48,242 nucleotides of DNA, from contig LJNG01000005.1 of NCBI GenBank assembly GCA_001302985.1, positions 1 through 48,242 of the forward strand, in the 5' to 3' direction. Positions 2,272 to 43,453 of this stretch are shown here, one piece after another (the first letter of the stretch is position 1; each line of letters begins with the position of its first letter). The translations under genes and the position numbers were made by a program. The notes under the pieces were generated by a model. That model worked only from the letters and a program-made list of their open reading frames with translations. It was not told where the DNA came from and did not search any database. Source of the stretch: Parcubacteria bacterium DG_74_3 (GTDB lineage: Bacteria > Patescibacteriota > Minisyncoccia > Minisyncoccales > DG-74-3).

Positions 2272-3360
2272 ATGATTTTTCAGATTTTAATTGCCATTTT
2301 TAGCATTGTGATTTTATTTTCCCTTCATGAACTGGGACATTTTATTTTAGCAAAGGTCTTTGGGGTAAGGGTCCAAGAGTTTGGTTTGGGCTATCCTCCC
2401 CGAATCTTTGGCAAAACAATTGGCCAAACTTTTTATTCTCTAAATCTTTTACCCTTTGGTGCCTTTGTAAGGGTATACGGAGAGGAAGAAGGAGTTATGG
2501 AAGGCGGGAGTTTTAGAACAAAACCCATTTGGCAAAGAGCCTTAATTGTTTTGGGGGGAGTAATTACCTTTTGGATAATCGCTTTTTTACTTTTCACCTT
2601 GGTGGCAGGTGTCTGGGGATTACCGGTGGCCGTGGAAGATGAGATTAATCACGACTTAAAGGATACTAAAATTCAGATTATTGAAATTCTACCCAATTCT
2701 CCAGCAGAAAGAGCCGAATTAAAATCAGGTGACATTATTAAGAAAATAGAGAGTGGGGGAGATTTACTTGAAACCGACAAGGTGGCTGAGGTAGTGGAGT
2801 TTGTTAAAATTCATCAAGGCAGAGAAGTTGTTTTAACCATCAAAAGGGGCGGGGAGGTTTTAGAAATTGTTCTTGTTCCCAGGGTTTCTCCTCCGGAAAA
2901 CGAAGGACCTATGGGAGTTAGTCTTACCAGAACTGCCCTGGAGCATTATTCTTGGAGAGAAGCACCTCTCCAGGGTATCCTGACGACAGGTAGAGTAACC
3001 ATTGCCATTCCCCGTCTTTTAGGAGATGCCCTGATAAAATCTTTTAGAGGAGAGCAACCCAGGGAACAAATAGAACTTAAAGGACCGGTTGGTGTTGCCC
3101 AGCTTATTGGAGAGATTATTCCTCAGGGAATCAATTACTTCTTATATTTTATGGCAATAATTGCTATTCATGCAGCTCTATTTAATCTCCTACCCATTCC
3201 GGCTGTAGACGGAGGAAGATTATTGTTTCTGGGAATCGAGAAAATTAAAGGAGGACCTCTTGACCCTAAAACAGAAAAAAATGTTAATGCTTTTTTCTTT
3301 ACCCTCTTAATTATTTTGATGGTTTTCGTGACAATAAAAGACATAAAAGGTCTTCTTTAA
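2272..3360 (+). CDS. rseP: Site-2 (M50) zinc metalloprotease RseP with PDZ domain
   Basis: HELGHF zinc motif in TM1, a central PDZ-like segment, and a C-terminal NLLPIPAVDGG motif. Confidence 0.85.
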   Translation: MIFQILIAIFSIVILFSLHELGHFILAKVFGVRVQEFGLGYPPRIFGKTIGQTFYSLNLLPFGAFVRVYGEEEGVMEGGSFRTKPIWQRALIVLGGVITFWIIAFLLFTLVAGVWGLPVAVEDEINHDLKDTKIQIIEILPNSPAERAELKSGDIIKKIESGGDLLETDKVAEVVEFVKIHQGREVVLTIKRGGEVLEIVLVPRVSPPENEGPMGVSLTRTALEHYSWREAPLQGILTTGRVTIAIPRLLGDALIKSFRGEQPREQIELKGPVGVAQLIGEIIPQGINYFLYFMAIIAIHAALFNLLPIPAVDGGRLLFLGIEKIKGGPLDPKTEKNVNAFFFTLLIILMVFVTIKDIKGLL

Positions 3361-8080: not shown

Positions 8081-8151
8081 AGCGGGGTAGAGGAGTAGTA
8101 CCTTACCAGGCTCATAACCTGGAGACGCTGGTGCAATTCCAGCCCCCGCAA
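8081..8151 (+). tRNA. Initiator tRNA-Met (CAT) with atypical D- and T-loops
   Basis: Acceptor AGCGGGG/CCCCGCA with an A1:A72 mismatch, A11:U24, anticodon loop CTCATAA and discriminator A. The register matches E. coli tRNA-fMet. D-loop is AGTAGTA and T-loop TGCAATT. No CCA encoded. Confidence 0.7.
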
Positions 8152-8224
8152 GCCAGTATAGCTCAATGGTTAGAGCAATTGCATCATAAGCAAGAGGTTG
8201 CGGGTTCGAATCCTGCTACTGGCA
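8152..8224 (+). tRNA. tRNA with CAT anticodon (elongator Met or Ile2, undecidable by eye)
   Basis: Acceptor GCCAGTA/TACTGGC, D arm GCTC-AATGGTTA-GAGC, anticodon loop ATCATAA, T arm GCGGG-TTCGAAT-CCTGC. It starts the base after the previous tRNA. Confidence 0.85.
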
Positions 8225-8393: not shown

Positions 8394-8469
8394 GGACCCG
8401 TAGTGTAGCCCGGTTTAACACGCTTCCCTGTCACGGAAGAGATCGCCGGTTCAAATCCGGTCGGGTCCG
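8394..8469 (+). tRNA. tRNA-Asp (GTC)
   Basis: Acceptor GGACCCG/CGGGTCC, anticodon loop CTGTCAC, T arm GCCGG-TTCAAAT-CCGGT, discriminator G. Confidence 0.9.
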
Positions 8470-8521
8470 CAAAATAAATTCTTAGTAAGGTCAAATTCTA
8501 TTGCCCGGCCCAATTATTATT

Positions 8522-27676: not shown

Positions 27677-29407
27677 TTATTTCTTTTCTTTTATTTCTTT
27701 TTTAACTTTTTCTATAAATTTCGTCAATTTTATAATCCCCACATCTCCCTTGTCTCTTTTTCTTATTCTGACCGATTTTGTTTTTATTTCTTTATCACCA
27801 ACTACTAACATATAGGGGATTTTTTGAACCTCTGCTTCTCGAATTTTTTTTGAGACCGTTTCAGCTTCTGTCCAAACTTCAGTTCTTAGGTTTTCTTCTT
27901 TTAATACTTTCCCGATTTCTTTGGCATATTTTCTATGTCTGGAACCTACCGGTATTACTACAAGTTGGATGGGTGATAACCACAAAGGAAAAGCACCTCC
28001 GTAATGCTCAATTAGGACTCCAATAAATCTCTCTAAAGAGCCCAAAAGAGCCCGATGAATCATAATCGGTCGTTTTTTCTGGCCCTTTTTGTTAATAAAG
28101 TTTAAATTAAATTTTTCTGGAAAATTAAAATCTACCTGAATTGTAGTTAATTGCCATTCCCTGCCTATTGTATCTTTTACTAAAAAGTCAATTTTGGGCC
28201 CGTAAAAAACAGCTTCTCCTAAATAACGTTTATAAGAAAGTTTTTTAGCTTTTAGAGCTTCTTCCAGGGCTTTCTCAGCCAAATTCCAGATTTTATTAGA
28301 CCCCAAATAATTCGTTTTCTTTTTAGGGTCACGAACCGAAAGAGAAACTTTAAATTCCTTGAAACCAAAACTTTTCAAAATATAAAGAGTTAAATCAATC
28401 ATGGATAAAAGTTCAGAATGTAATTGTTCAGGGGCACAAAAGAGGTGGGCATCGTCTTGAGTAAAGCCCCTAACTCTGGTCAGACCGTGCAATGTGCCTG
28501 ACCTTTCGTACCTGTAAACAGTTCCCATCTCGGTGAATCTTAGGGGTAAATCCCTGTAAGACCTTATTTTAGAATTATAAATTTTGACGTGTCCCGGACA
28601 ATTCATAGGTTTTATCATATAGAATTCCTTTTCTACCTTAATAGGAGAATACATGCTCTCTCGATAGAAATCCCAGTGACCAGATCTTTTCCAGAGCTGC
28701 AAATTAGCAATGTGGGGTGTGGCTACCAGCTTATAACCCCTTTCCAGATAAGCATTTAGGGCAAAATCCATAATAATCTTTCTGAGAATAGCTCCCTTAG
28801 GAAGCCACAAGGGTAGTCCCGAACCAAATTCTTCGTCAATGAGGAACAGTTCCAATTTCTTTCCCAAAACCCTATGGTCTCTTTTTTCAGCTTCTGCTTC
28901 TCTTTCGAGAAATTTTTTTAATTCTTCCTCTGTATTAAAGGCTACTCCATAAATTCTGGTTAACATTGGGTTTTTTTCATCACCTCGCCAATAAGCTCCG
29001 GCAATTTTAGTTATTTTGAAACCCTTGATTGGAATTTCTTTTGTGGATTTTACATGAGGTCCCTGACAGAGGTCGAGGAAATTTCCACTTTCGTATACCG
29101 TAATCTTTTCTCCCGACATTTCCTTGATTAACTCTAACTTATAGGGCTGGTTCTGAAAAATTTTTTGGGCTTCTTTTTTCGAAACCCCCCTTTTCTTAAA
29201 AGATAAATTCTGCTTTATAATTTGACGCATTTTATCTTCTATTTTAGGAAGGTCTCCTGGGGTTAAACTTTGAGATAAATCAAAATCATAATAGAAGCCA
29301 TTTTCAATAGCAGGCCCAATTCCAAATTTAACCCCGGGAAAGAGCTCTTGAACTATCTGAGCCATTATATGAGATAAAGAATGACGAATTGTTTCAATTT
29401 TAGCCAT
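27677..29407 (-). CDS. thrS: Threonyl-tRNA synthetase lacking the N-terminal TGS domain
   Basis: 576 aa. It starts in the editing (SAD) domain (RHSLSHIMA, DLCQGPHV), followed by the class II core and anticodon-binding domain. Confidence 0.92.
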   Translation of the reverse strand: MAKIETIRHSLSHIMAQIVQELFPGVKFGIGPAIENGFYYDFDLSQSLTPGDLPKIEDKMRQIIKQNLSFKKRGVSKKEAQKIFQNQPYKLELIKEMSGEKITVYESGNFLDLCQGPHVKSTKEIPIKGFKITKIAGAYWRGDEKNPMLTRIYGVAFNTEEELKKFLEREAEAEKRDHRVLGKKLELFLIDEEFGSGLPLWLPKGAILRKIIMDFALNAYLERGYKLVATPHIANLQLWKRSGHWDFYRESMYSPIKVEKEFYMIKPMNCPGHVKIYNSKIRSYRDLPLRFTEMGTVYRYERSGTLHGLTRVRGFTQDDAHLFCAPEQLHSELLSMIDLTLYILKSFGFKEFKVSLSVRDPKKKTNYLGSNKIWNLAEKALEEALKAKKLSYKRYLGEAVFYGPKIDFLVKDTIGREWQLTTIQVDFNFPEKFNLNFINKKGQKKRPIMIHRALLGSLERFIGVLIEHYGGAFPLWLSPIQLVVIPVGSRHRKYAKEIGKVLKEENLRTEVWTEAETVSKKIREAEVQKIPYMLVVGDKEIKTKSVRIRKRDKGDVGIIKLTKFIEKVKKEIKEKK

Positions 29408-29486
29408 TTTTTTTAATTAATTAATTTTATCATAAAAAGACTTGACCTTTTACCCCCACTTAACTTTTTGGGAAGGCGCTGAGCTT

Positions 29487-29563
29487 AAATAAAAAACCTC
29501 TTTTTGACAAAGAGCTAGTTGGGGAATAAATTGAAAGCTCCTCAACTAGCCTAAAAAGAGGTT
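29487..29563 (-). terminator. Attenuator terminator in the thrS leader
   Basis: Minus strand: AACCTCTTTTT-ag-GCTAGTTGAGG..loop..CCCCAACTAGC-tctttgtc-AAAAAGAGGTT followed by TTTTATTT, ending 80 nt upstream of the thrS ATG. Confidence 0.7.
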
Positions 29564-29604
29564 GTGGTGGTAGTGGTAGTTAAATTTTTTAGGAATTTCA
29601 TCAT
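29551..29604 (-). CDS. Candidate thrS leader peptide MMKFLKNLTTTTTTTSF
   Basis: ATG ATG AAA TTC CTA AAA AAT TTA ACT ACC ACT ACC ACC ACA ACC TCT TTT TAG. The last codons overlap the 5' arm of the terminator. Confidence 0.65.
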   Translation of the reverse strand: MMKFLKNLTTTTTTTSF

Positions 29605-29612
29605 CTTTTTTT

Positions 29613-29641
29613 AATTTAAAGAATTCAGAACCCATTGTCAA
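29613..29641 (-). promoter_or_regulatory. Sigma70-like promoter for the thrS leader
   Basis: TTGACA (29641-29636), 17 nt, TAAATT (29618-29613). Only 8 nt separate the -10 from the leader ATG. Confidence 0.6.
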
Positions 29642-29702
29642 GGTTTATCTGGAGAAGAATTTTGACAAGATTGCAGAGAAAGTCGAAATTTCTTTGCTGG
29701 GT

Positions 29703-32700
29703 TTATATTTCCATAATTTCTTCTATGTTCTCACAAATGATTTTAGGAGCTCCGCCATAGGAATCAACCTTGCCCGTAACAAAAACGATTTTATTTTCCT
29801 GAAAAGCTGTGGGGTTTTTTTCAATTACTCCCGGAAAGACCACAACCTCTATTTTATCGGTTAAATCTTCTAAATTCATAAAAAGCATGGGTTTACCTCG
29901 TTTCGTTAAAATCTTTTTAATAGAAGAGACAATTCCTCCAACCCTTATTTTCTGAACAAAAAGTCCTTGTTTTAAGTCTTTAAGAGGCAGAGTCTTTTTT
30001 TCCAAAACCTCTTTAAATTCTTCCAGAGGATGAGAAGAAACATAAAGACCTAAAAGTTCTTTTTCCCAGATTAATTTTTGGGATAAAGAAGCAGGTTCCA
30101 CCTCTTTTAATTTTAAAAATGGTTGAGAGATTGAACTTCCCTCAAATAGATTTTTTTGGGAAGAGTTGTTTTCCCGACCGAGATTGCGATTAAACTCTAA
30201 GATTTTTTCGATATTTGTGAGCAATTTGTTTCTTTCTTCAAATTGGTCAAAAACCCCGGCTTTAATTAAACTCTCTAAGGATTTTTTGTTTACGGTTCTA
30301 GAATCAAGTCTGTAGATAAAATCATCCATCGACTTAAAATTATTCCTGTTTTTTCTCTCTGAGAGCACGGATTCAACAACATTATTTCCCACGTTTTTAA
30401 TTGCTAATAATCCGAAGCGAATCTTGTTTTCTTTTGGTATTACCGAGAAATTTCTAAAGCTTTCGTTAATGTCCGGTGATAAAACCTCAATTCCCATTTT
30501 TTTACATTCTTCAATTAAAAATCCTATTCTTTCAACATCTCCCTTTTCAGAGGTCAAAAGAGCTGACATAAATTCTATTGGAAAATGGGTTTTTAAGTAG
30601 GCTGTTTGATAGGCAATGGAAGCATAAGAACAAGAATGGGCTCGATTAAATCCATATCTGGCAAAGGGTAAAACCCAGGCCCAAAGACCTTGAGCTACCT
30701 TTTTTTCAACTCCATTTTTTATCATCCCCTTGATAAATTTTTCTTTTTGGGCCAAAAGAAGACTCTTTATTTTTTTACCTACTGCTTTTCTTAAGATATC
30801 GGCCTCTGCTAAAGAAAAGCCGGCTAACTGTTGAGCAATTTGCATCACCTGTTCTTGATAAACACAAATTCCACAGGTGGGTTCTAAAATCACTTTTAGT
30901 TTGGGGTGCAAATATTCAATCTTTTTTCTTTTATGCTTCCTTTCAATATATTCCGGGATTAGAGACATGGGTCCTGGGCGATAGAGGGCAATCATGGCAA
31001 CAATATCTTCAAACTCAGTGGGTTTTAGTTGTTGGAGATATCTTCGCATGCCACCTGACTCTAATTGAAAGACACCTACTGTTTCGCCAGCCTGTAATAA
31101 TTTAAAAGTTTTTCTATCGTCTGGAGGTAGAGATTCAATATCAATTTTTTTGTCTTGTACTACATAAATTCGAGATAAAGTATCTTCAATGATAGTCAGG
31201 TTTTTTAGTCCCAAAAGGTCAATTTTTAACAGTCCCAAATCTTCAACCGAATGCATCTCATATTGAGTAACAATGGCTTCATCGTCTTGAGTGGGGTGCT
31301 GTAGGGGCACAACATTATCTAGGGGCTCCTTTGAGATGACTATTCCGCAAGCATGGGTAGATGCATGACGGGCTCTTCCCTCTAACCTTTTGGCATAATC
31401 AATTAACTTCTTTGTATTTTCATCGGTTTCATAGGCCTGACGAAGCTCGCTGACCTTTTCTAAGCTTTCCTTAAGAGTGAATCCGAAAGGAATGAGTTTA
31501 GCTACCCTATCACAGAAGCTATAAGAAAGACCCAAAGCGCGACCAACGTCCCTAACCACTGCCCTGGCTGCCATGGTACCGAAAGTGATGATTTGAGCTA
31601 CCTTATCTTGTCCGTATTTTTGGGTAATGTATTCAATTACCTCATTTCTTCTTCGGTCTGTAAAGTCAAGGTCAATGTCTGGCATGGAAATACGGGAAGG
31701 ATTTAAAAATCTTTCAAACAAAAGATTGTATTTTAGGGGGTCAACATTGGTAATGCCTAAAGCATAAGCAACAATGGAGCCCGCCACACTTCCTCTACCC
31801 GGTCCCACCACAATTCTATTTTCTTTTGCCCAATTGACAAAATCCTGAACAATCAAAAAATAGGCCACAAAACCCATTTTTTCAATTAGAGAAAGCTCAT
31901 AATTCAGCCTTTCCATTGCCTCTTTTGAAGGAAAGGTTCCATATCTTCTTTTAACTCCAACTTGACACAGCTCTCTTAAATATTCTTTTGGTGTTTTATT
32001 GTCCGGTACCTCAAAATAGGGAAGTCTGGTTTCGCCTAAATTAAATTCGAAATGGCAGGCCTCTACTATTTTCTGGGTATTCTCAATGGCTTGAGGTAAA
32101 TCTTCAAAATCTTTTATCATTTGCTCCTTGCTTCTTAGGGAGAAATCGTCTTCTCTGAGGGTCAGTCTTTCTGGGTCATTTGGGTCAGCCCCGGTATTAA
32201 TCAGCATTAAAATATCTTGGGCTTCTGCGTCTTCTGGTTTTAGATAATGAACATCATTTGTAGCCACTAAAGGAATGCCATATTTTTTAGATATAGAGAC
32301 CAGAGCTTTATTAACAATTCTTTGATCTTGAGAGTTAGGGTGGTGCTGAACTTCTAAATAAAAATTATCTTTTCCGAAAATTTCTTGATAATGGAGAGCC
32401 ATTTTTTCCGCTTTTTCTATTTTTTTGGCTAATATTAATTTTGGAATTCTTCCTGCCAGGCAAGCCGAGGTGCAAATTAATCCCTCCGAATGCTTGACCA
32501 ATAACTCTTTATCAATTCTCGGTTTATAATAAAAGCCCTTCAGGTGGGCTTCGGTGATTAGTTTTACTAAATTTTTGTAGCCTTTTTCGTTTTTGACCAA
32601 TAAAATTAAATGATACCTCTGGTCGTCTATATTTGGTCTTTTTTGGAGCATTCCCTCATAAGCTAAATACATTTCAGCTCCAATTATTGGCTTTATCTCT

Positions 32701-32873
32701 CTCTTTTTTGCTTCCTTATAAAATTCGACTGCTCCATATAGGTTCCCATGGTCGGTCAGGGCAACCGCCTCCATATTCTGCTCCTTGACATAATCTAAAA
32801 GTTCATTTATCTTGGGCAAACCGTCTAACAAGCTATAGTGAGAGTGAACGTGGAGGTGGGTAAATTTTGTCAT
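29703..32873 (-). CDS. dnaE: DNA polymerase III alpha subunit
   Basis: 1056 aa with a PHP domain (HLHVHSHYSLLDG) followed by polymerase core and OB regions. Confidence 0.93.
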   Translation of the reverse strand: MTKFTHLHVHSHYSLLDGLPKINELLDYVKEQNMEAVALTDHGNLYGAVEFYKEAKKREIKPIIGAEMYLAYEGMLQKRPNIDDQRYHLILLVKNEKGYKNLVKLITEAHLKGFYYKPRIDKELLVKHSEGLICTSACLAGRIPKLILAKKIEKAEKMALHYQEIFGKDNFYLEVQHHPNSQDQRIVNKALVSISKKYGIPLVATNDVHYLKPEDAEAQDILMLINTGADPNDPERLTLREDDFSLRSKEQMIKDFEDLPQAIENTQKIVEACHFEFNLGETRLPYFEVPDNKTPKEYLRELCQVGVKRRYGTFPSKEAMERLNYELSLIEKMGFVAYFLIVQDFVNWAKENRIVVGPGRGSVAGSIVAYALGITNVDPLKYNLLFERFLNPSRISMPDIDLDFTDRRRNEVIEYITQKYGQDKVAQIITFGTMAARAVVRDVGRALGLSYSFCDRVAKLIPFGFTLKESLEKVSELRQAYETDENTKKLIDYAKRLEGRARHASTHACGIVISKEPLDNVVPLQHPTQDDEAIVTQYEMHSVEDLGLLKIDLLGLKNLTIIEDTLSRIYVVQDKKIDIESLPPDDRKTFKLLQAGETVGVFQLESGGMRRYLQQLKPTEFEDIVAMIALYRPGPMSLIPEYIERKHKRKKIEYLHPKLKVILEPTCGICVYQEQVMQIAQQLAGFSLAEADILRKAVGKKIKSLLLAQKEKFIKGMIKNGVEKKVAQGLWAWVLPFARYGFNRAHSCSYASIAYQTAYLKTHFPIEFMSALLTSEKGDVERIGFLIEECKKMGIEVLSPDINESFRNFSVIPKENKIRFGLLAIKNVGNNVVESVLSERKNRNNFKSMDDFIYRLDSRTVNKKSLESLIKAGVFDQFEERNKLLTNIEKILEFNRNLGRENNSSQKNLFEGSSISQPFLKLKEVEPASLSQKLIWEKELLGLYVSSHPLEEFKEVLEKKTLPLKDLKQGLFVQKIRVGGIVSSIKKILTKRGKPMLFMNLEDLTDKIEVVVFPGVIEKNPTAFQENKIVFVTGKVDSYGGAPKIICENIEEIMEI

Positions 32874-37112: not shown

Positions 37113-37223
37113 ATGCTCCCAAAGAGAAAATTAGAAAAATTATATAAAAACGGTTTATCGATGCAAGAAATTTCCGATAGAACTGGATTGAGTTATAAAC
37201 AAACGTTCCCCTTGCCGAGATAG
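37113..37223 (+). pseudogene. 36-codon helix-turn-helix remnant running into tRNA-Thr
   Basis: MLPKRKLEKLYKNGLSMQEISDRTGLSYKQTFPLPR*. The LYxxGxSxxEIaxxxGxS pattern is typical of recombinase/transposase-type HTH. The stop lies inside the tRNA. Confidence 0.35.
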
Positions 37224-37286
37224 CTCAGTTGGTAGAGCATTCCCATGGTAAGGGAAAGGTCACGAGTTCAAATCTCGTTCTCGGCT
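37214..37286 (+). tRNA. tRNA-Thr (GGT)
   Basis: Acceptor GCCGAGA/TCTCGGC, D arm GCTC-AGTTGGTA-GAGC, anticodon loop ATGGTAA, T arm ACGAG-TTCAAAT-CTCGT. Confidence 0.9.
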
Positions 37287-37293
37287 CAAAAAT

Positions 37294-42835: not shown

Positions 42836-43453
42836 ATGAGTTTAATTGATGAATTAATTCAGGGCGGGTGGTTAAAAACCCCGAGAATAATTGAAGCTTT
42901 TCACACCATTAAAAGGGTGGATTTTTTGCCATCTGACCTTAAAAATTTAGCCGAAGCAAACACGGCTCTACCCATTGGGCAGGGTCAGACAATTTCCCAG
43001 CCCCTGGTAGTAGCTTTTATGTTAGAGCAGTTAGAACCCCGAAAAGGAGATAAAATTTTAGATATAGGTTCAGGTTCTGGTTGGACCACAGCGCTTTTGG
43101 CTGAAATTGTAGGAGAAAAAGGCAAAGTGATTGCGATTGAAATTGTGCCAGAATTGAAAGAATTTGGAGAGAAAAATACAAAAAAATATAATTTTATAGA
43201 AAAGGGAAGAGCTGAATTTATTTTGGCTGATGGCTCCAAAGGCTACAAAAAAGAAGCCCCTTTTGATAAAATTTTAGTTTCAGCTTCTGCCCAAATTATT
43301 TCTCCTGCCTGGAAAGAACAAGTAAAAGTTGGAGGAAGAATCGTTGTGCCCATAGGTACCTCTATTTATCTTTTTATTAAAAAATCAGAAACAGAATTTA
43401 AAGAGCACGAATACCCGGGGTTTGTATTTGTACCTTTAATCAGTGATCAGTAA
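42836..43453 (+). CDS. pcm: Protein-L-isoaspartate O-methyltransferase
   Basis: 205 aa, GQTISQPLVVAFMLE.., ILDIGSGSGWTTALLA. Confidence 0.88.
   Translation: MSLIDELIQGGWLKTPRIIEAFHTIKRVDFLPSDLKNLAEANTALPIGQGQTISQPLVVAFMLEQLEPRKGDKILDIGSGSGWTTALLAEIVGEKGKVIAIEIVPELKEFGEKNTKKYNFIEKGRAEFILADGSKGYKKEAPFDKILVSASAQIISPAWKEQVKVGGRIVVPIGTSIYLFIKKSETEFKEHEYPGFVFVPLISDQ

Follow-up and report, generated by a model that had tools for sequence, protein, structure and literature searches.

We report a probable regulatory element upstream of thrS, the gene of threonyl-tRNA synthetase (ThrRS), in a 48,242-nt stretch of DNA from Parcubacteria bacterium DG_74_3 (contig LJNG01000005.1, hereafter the window). 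On the minus strand, a tiny open reading frame (ORF) with seven consecutive Thr codons runs into a predicted intrinsic terminator in front of thrS. From its conservation and its predicted structure, we consider it likely that this is a ribosome-mediated leader-peptide transcription attenuator which senses charged tRNA-Thr and controls read-through into thrS. That a transcription stop signal and a tiny Thr-rich ORF precede thrS is, as a whole feature, not a chance pattern. This is because the hairpin is more stable than any of 200 shuffled versions (z = -5.83), because a run of at least five Thr codons occurs on average 0.04 times per shuffled window over six frames while the real window contains one, the leader's own, and because five other lineages share the arrangement.

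The minus strand of 29300..29800 was read directly, and all coordinates of the element refer to the whole window. Its parts and the flanking genes are:

29613..29641, minus strand: sigma-70-type leader promoter with TTGACA at 29641..29636, a 17-nt spacer and TAAATT at 29618..29613 (promoter scanner 10/12)

29551..29604, minus strand: 'thrL-like' leader ORF of 18 codons with ATGATG start and TAG stop, encoding the 17 residues MMKFLKNLTTTTTTTSF

29560..29580, minus strand: control codons, codons 9-15 of the ORF, seven consecutive Thr codons (ACT ACC ACT ACC ACC ACA ACC)

29553..29563, minus strand: P1 or region 1, the outer 5' arm of the hairpin (DNA AACCTCTTTTT, RNA AACCUCUUUUU), inside the ORF and made of the last Thr, the Ser and the Phe codons plus the first base of the stop

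29513..29551, minus strand: inner hairpin (regions 2:3), the proposed antiterminator, in which GGCUAGUUG pairs with CAACUAGCU, with an apical extension GGAG/UUCC (minimum free energy (MFE) folds)

29551..29543 and 29521..29513, minus strand: strands of the inner stem, GGCTAGTTG and CAACTAGCT

29509..29514, minus strand: P2, an internal CUCUUU that repeats region 1 and can pair with AAAGAG of the 3' arm

29495..29505, minus strand: R2 or region 4, the outer 3' arm (DNA AAAAAGAGGTT, RNA AAAAAGAGGUU), common to the long hairpin and to a mini-hairpin treated below

29487..29494, minus strand: U-tract of the predicted intrinsic terminator (DNA TTTTATTT, RNA UUUUAUUU), with UUUUUUAUUU directly 3' of the hairpin

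27677..29407, minus strand: thrS, the putatively regulated gene, with its ATG at 29407; 576-aa ThrRS with tRNA_SAD, class II core and anticodon-binding domains (Pfam, homologue list)

29703..32873, minus strand: dnaE (DNA polymerase III alpha, 1056 aa; Pfam), the upstream neighbour on the same strand, whose stop codon ends at 29703

A first-pass annotation of this DNA had described the promoter, the 18-codon ORF, the seven Thr codons, the bipartite hairpin and a gap of 80 nt between the U-tract and the thrS ATG; reading the sequence and parsing the ORFs confirmed all of these coordinates. The promoter is among the best matches of a 6.5-kb promoter scan, and its -10 element ends 8 nt before the leader ATG. 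The bipartite hairpin spans 69 nt, with P1 opposite 29505..29495. On folding, the 80-nt region has an MFE of -26.9 kcal/mol, compared to -12.0 +/- 2.6 kcal/mol after shuffling.

For upstream comparison, the contigs of the closest ThrRS homologues were fetched individually. The named homologues belong to Parcubacteria, Gribaldobacteria or the Patescibacteria group. Together with the G+C content of 29-42% and a DUF5667/Kazal neighbour gene (Pfam), they place the window in an uncultured bacterium of the candidate phyla radiation (CPR). The identical locus is present in at least six independent assemblies, and six distinct sequences from independent metagenomes carry the leader, namely the window and the following relatives:

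L167: ThrRS 78% identical to that of the window, leader MLICLKKFNITTTTTSF

L171: ThrRS 76% identical, leader MLNHLRKLNITTTTTSF

L178: ThrRS 74% identical, leader MLKCLNKFNITTTTTSF

L176/L177: ThrRS 75-76% identical, leader MKIFKENLITTTTTSF

L175: ThrRS 70% identical, leader MGKIKKNLTITTTTTTSF

The order dnaE-thrS holds throughout the close relatives, and in the five leader-bearing ones the two genes are separated by about 240-295 nt. The promoter is kept as TTGACA-16-TAAAAT or TAAATT and scores 10-11/12 in L167, L176, L178 and L175; in L171 a promoter of the same type was read by eye. From the end of the -10 element to the ATG there are 8-9 nt in five of the six lineages and 26 nt in L176. All six leader ORFs comprise 16-18 codons with 5-7 Thr codons and end in TSF*, with UCU UUU UAG invariant, while the N-terminal residues vary freely. 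The last five Thr codons all keep AC as their first two bases, whereas the third base varies in four of the five columns (ACT/ACA/ACG, ACC/ACA, ACC/ACA/ACG and ACC/ACT). Fixed AC together with a free third base is, as read from this alignment, a signature of selection on codon identity. Thus, all six sequences show two of the features that define the attenuator class, a short ORF behind a promoter and before thrS and, within it, a cluster of cognate codons that is conserved as codons. The alignment thereby upheld the expectation that the short ORF, its length and its Thr run are conserved in relatives, with variation at the third positions of the Thr codons. A further claim, that the preponderance of ACY codons in the window is tied to the tRNA-Thr(GGT), found at 37214..37287 by ARAGORN, had to be dropped: the bias is not conserved, and the relatives mostly use ACA.

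The element can be summarized by the descriptor TTGACA, 16-17 nt, TAAAWT, 8-9 nt, ATG, 7-10 codons, at least five ACN codons, TCTTTTTAG, hairpin, AAGRGG and T-tract. Among the matches listed for 160 genome and metagenome loci, mostly of distant relatives, no real case of a Thr-run ORF upstream of thrS was found, in a scan that sampled the close clade poorly. A covariance model (R1) built from the six sequences and run over 61 sources matched only the training sequences and their palindromic reverse strands, and a pattern scan of viral contigs for the Thr run plus the ORF tail gave no match.

The hairpin is conserved as a structure as well. On the six-sequence alignment, 92% of the cells of the two-helix structure are in standard pairs, rising to 97% for P1 and its partner, and four pairs of the inner stem show double compensatory changes. 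None of 500 shuffles reached the observed covariation score or the observed paired fraction, slid controls were clearly worse, and RNAalifold recovered the same structure unprompted. In L176 the inner stem is replaced by a wholly different one of 17 bp at the same place. As predicted, relatives thus keep the hairpin by compensatory changes, which fall in the inner stem. The outer stem is almost invariant, which neither supports nor contradicts its pairing. With the U-tract kept as UUUUUGUUU or UUUUUAUUU in the relatives, a stable and covarying hairpin followed by a U-tract stands between ORF and gene, as expected for a terminator.

Such a hairpin might simply serve dnaE, as its terminator or insulator, or be some other structural or repeat element, the ORF and its Thr run being incidental. 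It does lie downstream of dnaE on the same strand, and hairpins with an A-tract and a U-tract are common at gene ends. However, each of the six lineages has a strong promoter between the dnaE stop and the hairpin, and the frame, the length and the Thr run of the ORF are conserved with synonymous-type variation. In addition, relatives without the leader have no hairpin either, and in them dnaE and thrS are directly adjacent. A repeat element was rejected, as the 3'-arm motif is no more frequent in the window than expected by chance and the element is not repeated elsewhere there. Taken together, we hold it to be very improbable that the hairpin belongs to dnaE or is a mere structural element.

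The distance between terminator and thrS bears on whether thrS depends on read-through. This spacer ranges from about 25 to 135 nt among the lineages and is unconserved, and no further conserved element was found in it when it was compared across lineages. In L171 and L178 the thrS ATG follows the U-tract after only about 25-30 nt. So short a stretch cannot accommodate a promoter and a start site, and therefore in these lineages RNA polymerase must pass the terminator to transcribe the essential thrS gene. This is the strongest argument against another explanation, namely that promoter, ORF and terminator form a stand-alone small gene (for a 17-residue Thr-rich micropeptide or a small RNA) and that thrS is expressed from another promoter or by constitutive leak-through. 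The three parts do make up a complete transcription unit, and the 80-135 nt before thrS in the window, L167 and L175 could hide an AT-rich promoter, with weak 9/12 matches present in L167 and L175. However, the promoter scan of the window revealed no promoter-like site on the minus strand between 29487 and 29407. Moreover, only the Thr run and the RNA-constrained tail of the peptide are conserved while its remainder varies, and the element always lies directly upstream of thrS with the cognate amino acid as the repeated one. An independent small gene thus appears improbable to us.

How an attenuator of this design could switch was approached by constrained folding, with the ribosome footprint modelled from A site -15 to A site +11 to +15. 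This brought to light a conserved CUCUU (P2) just 5' of R2 that pairs with AAGAGG. The resulting P2:R2 mini-hairpin of 6-7 bp abuts the U-tract and is present in all six sequences at -5.4 to -7.6 kcal/mol (-5.6 kcal/mol in the window). Together with the U-tract it was called terminator-like by an independent scanner in all relatives scanned (L167, L176, L178 and L175; 0-0.2 expected). In L176 there is also a P1:AGAGG hairpin, which corresponds to a classical 1:2 pairing. Without a ribosome in the model, R2 pairs with P1 at a probability of 1.0. A ribosome whose A site is on the middle Thr codons masks P1 and lowers the pairing of R2 to 0.04-0.2 in L176 and to 0.3-0.5 in L178. With the A site on the last Thr, the Ser, the Phe or the stop codon, the base of the inner hairpin melts and P2:R2 pairing reaches about 1.0 in five of the six sequences and 0.76 in the window. 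Once P1 is masked, the state with unpaired R2 is favoured by 0.9-2.6 kcal/mol in L167, L171, L178 and L176. In these models, the direction of the effect is that of classical attenuation in every sequence.

We infer the start site, translation of the leader ORF, termination at the U-tract and switching of the RNA between three states. For the specific scheme that follows, which leans on the folding models, we see about even chances. Transcription would start at or just before the ATG of the 17-residue leader ORF and would yield four alternately complementary segments: P1 at the end of the ORF, region 2, region 3 ending in P2, and R2 with the U-tract behind it. If no ribosome were present, or once it had departed, P1 would pair with R2 around the inner hairpin to form the long intrinsic terminator, and the transcript would end. 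A ribosome at the UAG would cover P1 and the base of the inner hairpin and free P2; P2:R2 would then form the small terminator, again ending the transcript. If charged tRNA-Thr were scarce, the ribosome would dwell on the middle or late Thr codons and mask P1 and with it the bases whose pairs adjoin the U-tract. During such a stall the inner hairpin would stay intact and hold P2, R2 would remain unpaired and the polymerase would read into thrS. Most likely, the element thus raises synthetase output when charged tRNA-Thr is scarce.

This scheme amends the one proposed initially, in which a stalled ribosome masks the 5' arm and a ribosome that has finished lets the terminator form. The masking stands, yet the proposal was incomplete, as a ribosome at the stop codon masks the arm too. 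It is the conserved CUCUU, by way of the second terminator, which restores the classical logic despite this masking. The same position of the stop codon could speak for the opposite logic, similar to pyrBI or pyrE: a ribosome at the stop would block the terminator when Thr-tRNA is plentiful, and an early stall would free it, so that thrS expression falls in starvation. The stop codon does lie within the 5' arm, so that a terminating ribosome masks P1, and the long hairpin of the window stays fully intact when the ribosome stalls at Thr codons 1-2. However, a terminating ribosome also opens the inner hairpin at its base and frees P2 for the mini-terminator, which forms almost completely in five of the six sequences and is recognized by the scanner. 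Furthermore, less synthetase at low charging would be the reverse of every characterized synthetase control (pheST attenuation, T-boxes). We therefore doubt this opposite logic strongly and retain induction by starvation as the preferred reading.

Several observations nevertheless weigh against the attenuator as we propose it. With the A site on the middle Thr codons, R2 pairing still amounts to 0.6-0.9 in the window, L167, L171 and L175. After masking of P1 the state with unpaired R2 is disfavoured in the window (difference in free energy -1.0 kcal/mol) and in L175 (-2.4 kcal/mol), where the mini-hairpin is compatible with the inner hairpin. According to these models, the predicted switch is weak at equilibrium in several sequences including the window. 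Since the equilibrium effect is small, the switch would also have to draw on kinetic trapping of the inner hairpin, which forms first. A stall at the first two Thr codons of the window's seven-Thr leader falls short of P1, and on the folding models severe starvation could lead to termination (super-attenuation) with this leader. Outer stem, P2 and R2 are almost invariant in only six distinct sequences, which leaves P2:R2 without support from covariation. The leader Thr codons are not rare, ACC being the commonest Thr codon of the window by codon count, and an argument from rare codons was rejected accordingly. Translation of the leader, its start site and termination are predictions. Finally, some relatives do without the leader: in L173, L174, L181 and L183 thrS follows dnaE after 4-10 nt (thrS starts at 3001, 3001, 2784 and 3001, respectively; L183 is a named Gribaldobacteria locus), and L180 has a dnaE-thrS gap of 115 nt with no leader in it.

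The position of thrS right behind dnaE in L173, L174, L181 and L183 implies that it is co-transcribed with dnaE and that the attenuator was lost or is absent. In a quick neighbour-joining tree, the lineages lacking the leader form one subclade nested among leader-bearing ones. This tentatively suggests that the leader is ancestral and was lost when thrS became fused to dnaE.

How the leader ORF would be translated also requires consideration. Among the 38 ORFs of the window with at least 150 aa, a single one (42836..43453) has a motif resembling a Shine-Dalgarno (SD) sequence (GGAG/GAGG/AGGA) upstream of its start, while the other 37 starts are preceded by A/T-rich sequence. This scarcity agrees with the reported absence of the anti-SD sequence from a subgroup of Parcubacteria (PMC9297842). 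The missing SD before the leader ORF is therefore uninformative on its translation, because only 1/38 genes has one, and for the same reason it was rejected as evidence of a leaderless messenger RNA (mRNA), a use to which the first-pass annotation had put it. Its other argument, the short distance from the -10 element to the ATG, holds: because the gap of 8-9 nt is conserved in 5/6 lineages, the mRNA of the leader ORF is probably leaderless or near-leaderless.

As ACN codons read GUN on the complementary strand, the locus was considered in that direction too. A run VVVVVVV is encoded at 29561..29581 on the plus strand, and a TTGACA-17-TAAATT match lies within the hairpin at 29504..29532 (+). 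One might thus envision a Val-codon leader, or a plus-strand promoter in the hairpin that drives antisense transcription into dnaE. However, in all six lineages only two codons, neither of them a start codon (AAA, then GAG or GAA), separate the upstream stop from the Val run, and the length of the plus-strand ORF is unconserved (13-31 aa). On this strand there is no U-tract and no gene downstream, just the antisense of dnaE. Consequently, the Val leader was rejected for want of a start before the run, of a conserved ORF and of a following gene, and we judge both the promoter match and the Val run to be by-products of the minus-strand element; a function of the opposite strand is extremely unlikely.

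Besides the leader, the surroundings of thrS show some other features. The dnaE-thrS interval of the window contains an imperfect inverted repeat with CCCAGCAAAGAAATTTCGAC between the dnaE stop and the leader promoter (29650..29700, minus strand), and in L175 a near-identical motif forms a long inverted repeat on the downstream side of the terminator (2920..2990). The motif may serve as a terminator of dnaE or represent a small mobile repeat. Another conserved intergenic motif after the dnaE stop, AAATTTCCTCTCCCACYCTTCGCTCARCTTTGCTTCGCTCGGGTAATTGA, occurs in L171 (2763..2815), L178 (2758..2810) and L180 (2047..2150). The dnaE gene of L175 (1..2721) is split by an intein with a LAGLIDADG homing endonuclease domain, giving a product of 1464 aa compared to 1056 aa in the window. 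In the ThrRS of the window, which starts with MAKIETIRH and resembles its close relatives in its length of 576 aa, Pfam found no N-terminal TGS domain. Downstream of thrS in L178 (6012..7743), a MiaB-like part (UPF0004, Radical_SAM, TRAM) and a MiaA-like part (IPT/IPPT) apparently form one fused ORF, whereas the two genes are separate in the window and in L171. Elsewhere in the window, two tRNA-Met(CAT) genes follow each other with zero spacer on the plus strand (8081..8151 and 8152..8224), with a tRNA-Asp after them at 8394..8470.

The element belongs to no curated family, as judged from Rfam. At gathering score, the whole window yielded tRNAs, with no leader family and no T-box; at E <= 10, no leader-peptide family matched 29200..29900, and Thr_leader (RF00506) was among those without a match. 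The same holds for 20 related loci, in which neither a leader family nor a T-box was detected, the five leader-bearing relatives included. The only matches in these searches were tRNAs and chance-level snoRNA-like ones. Thus, neither RF00506 nor any other curated leader family takes in the region, and the T-box model (RF00230) recognized nothing in the window or in the 20 loci; the possibility that a different leader class might claim the region was thereby answered in the negative. By eye, no conserved anticodon-like loop motif (GGU/UGU/CGU) was noticed, and the hairpin loop differs among the lineages. Full-text literature searches returned no paper on leader-peptide attenuation in Patescibacteria or the CPR, nor any in which the CPR is mentioned alongside riboswitches and T-boxes.

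If correct, the finding is of interest in several respects. A conserved attenuator would be direct genomic evidence that CPR bacteria couple transcription and translation for feedback on tRNA charging. CPR genomes are tiny, and the element would also offer a handle on initiation where SD pairing is little used (PMC9297842). Its small size, approximately 120 nt, lends it to in vitro tests of a minimal attenuator RNA, and the occurrence of leader-bearing lineages beside those with thrS fused to dnaE shows how quickly such devices are gained or lost. While the mechanism is textbook, the CPR setting, SD-poor, leaderless and about 120 nt long, and the clean pairing of thrS with Thr codons are new and directly testable.

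The well-studied controls of thrS are the T-box in B. subtilis and a translational operator bound by ThrRS in E. coli. They share with the present element the regulated gene and the physiological purpose. However, no T-box was detected here, and the stretch ahead of the thrS start is neither conserved nor constant in length, which speaks against an operator at the ribosome-binding site. Leader-peptide attenuation would thus be a third solution for thrS. In the established case of E. coli pheM-pheST, a short ORF rich in cognate codons and an intrinsic terminator control the transcription of a synthetase according to tRNA charging. This system, cited as a precedent for attenuation (PMC1262725), resembles ours as a leader-peptide control of a synthetase gene, yet it differs in amino acid and phylum and shows no sequence relationship. 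Furthermore, pheM-pheST employs sequential 1:2, 2:3 and 3:4 hairpins and an SD-led ORF, whereas here the ORF ends inside the terminator, a 1:4 pairing is nested around 2:3 and the transcript is probably leaderless. The E. coli thr leader (RF00506) has a run of Thr codons and a terminator as well and senses charged tRNA-Thr by ribosome stalling; however, it regulates the biosynthetic thrABC genes and contains Ile codons in addition. The two are analogous, not homologous. The proposed logic is that of the trp attenuator of E. coli, in which a ribosome at the stop covers region 2 and 3:4 terminates, a stalled ribosome allows 2:3, and a lack of translation results in termination. Here, in contrast, the partner of region 1 is region 4 and not region 2 (L176 alone can form 1:2 as well), the whole device measures about 120 nt, and mutual exclusion of the pairings 2:3 and 3:4 involves only 1-5 nt.

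Predicted leader peptides before synthetase genes have been described in other phyla, for Streptomyces trpS and leuS (Seliverstov 2005, PMC1262725), for alaS and thrS of S. lividans (Droste 2021, PMC8079986) and for a hisS paralogue of Bacillus (PMC2965389). The S. lividans leaders of alaS, thrS, trpS and leuS are reported to be leaderless transcripts (PMC8079986), like the one presumed here, and they include the only earlier proposal of a thrL-thrS pair. The statement in the first-pass annotation that no Thr-leader attenuator of thrS had been described is thus nearly true, with this weak candidate as the exception. Its thrL (MKRVRPFLETTPGFVPAR) has two Thr codons and no clear U-tract terminator (PMC8079986), whereas the present leaders combine 5-7 consecutive Thr codons with a strong predicted terminator, conservation across lineages and covariation, and they belong to Patescibacteria instead of Actinobacteria. 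Taken together, we lean towards a still wider claim, which we hold with less confidence than the attenuator itself: that this would be the first ribosome-mediated attenuator recognized in Patescibacteria and, across all phyla, the first clear-cut case of thrS controlled by a Thr leader, an independently evolved, leaderless, nested four-segment switch of about 120 nt with two terminators sharing one 3' arm, by which ultra-small, SD-poor cells would couple translation to transcription and sense the charging of tRNA-Thr so as to adjust an essential synthetase. Compared to the known systems, it is a device of a known kind that is new in its regulated gene, in its phylum and in its architecture, with the stop codon inside the terminator, a nested 1:4 pairing and two terminators on one 3' arm.

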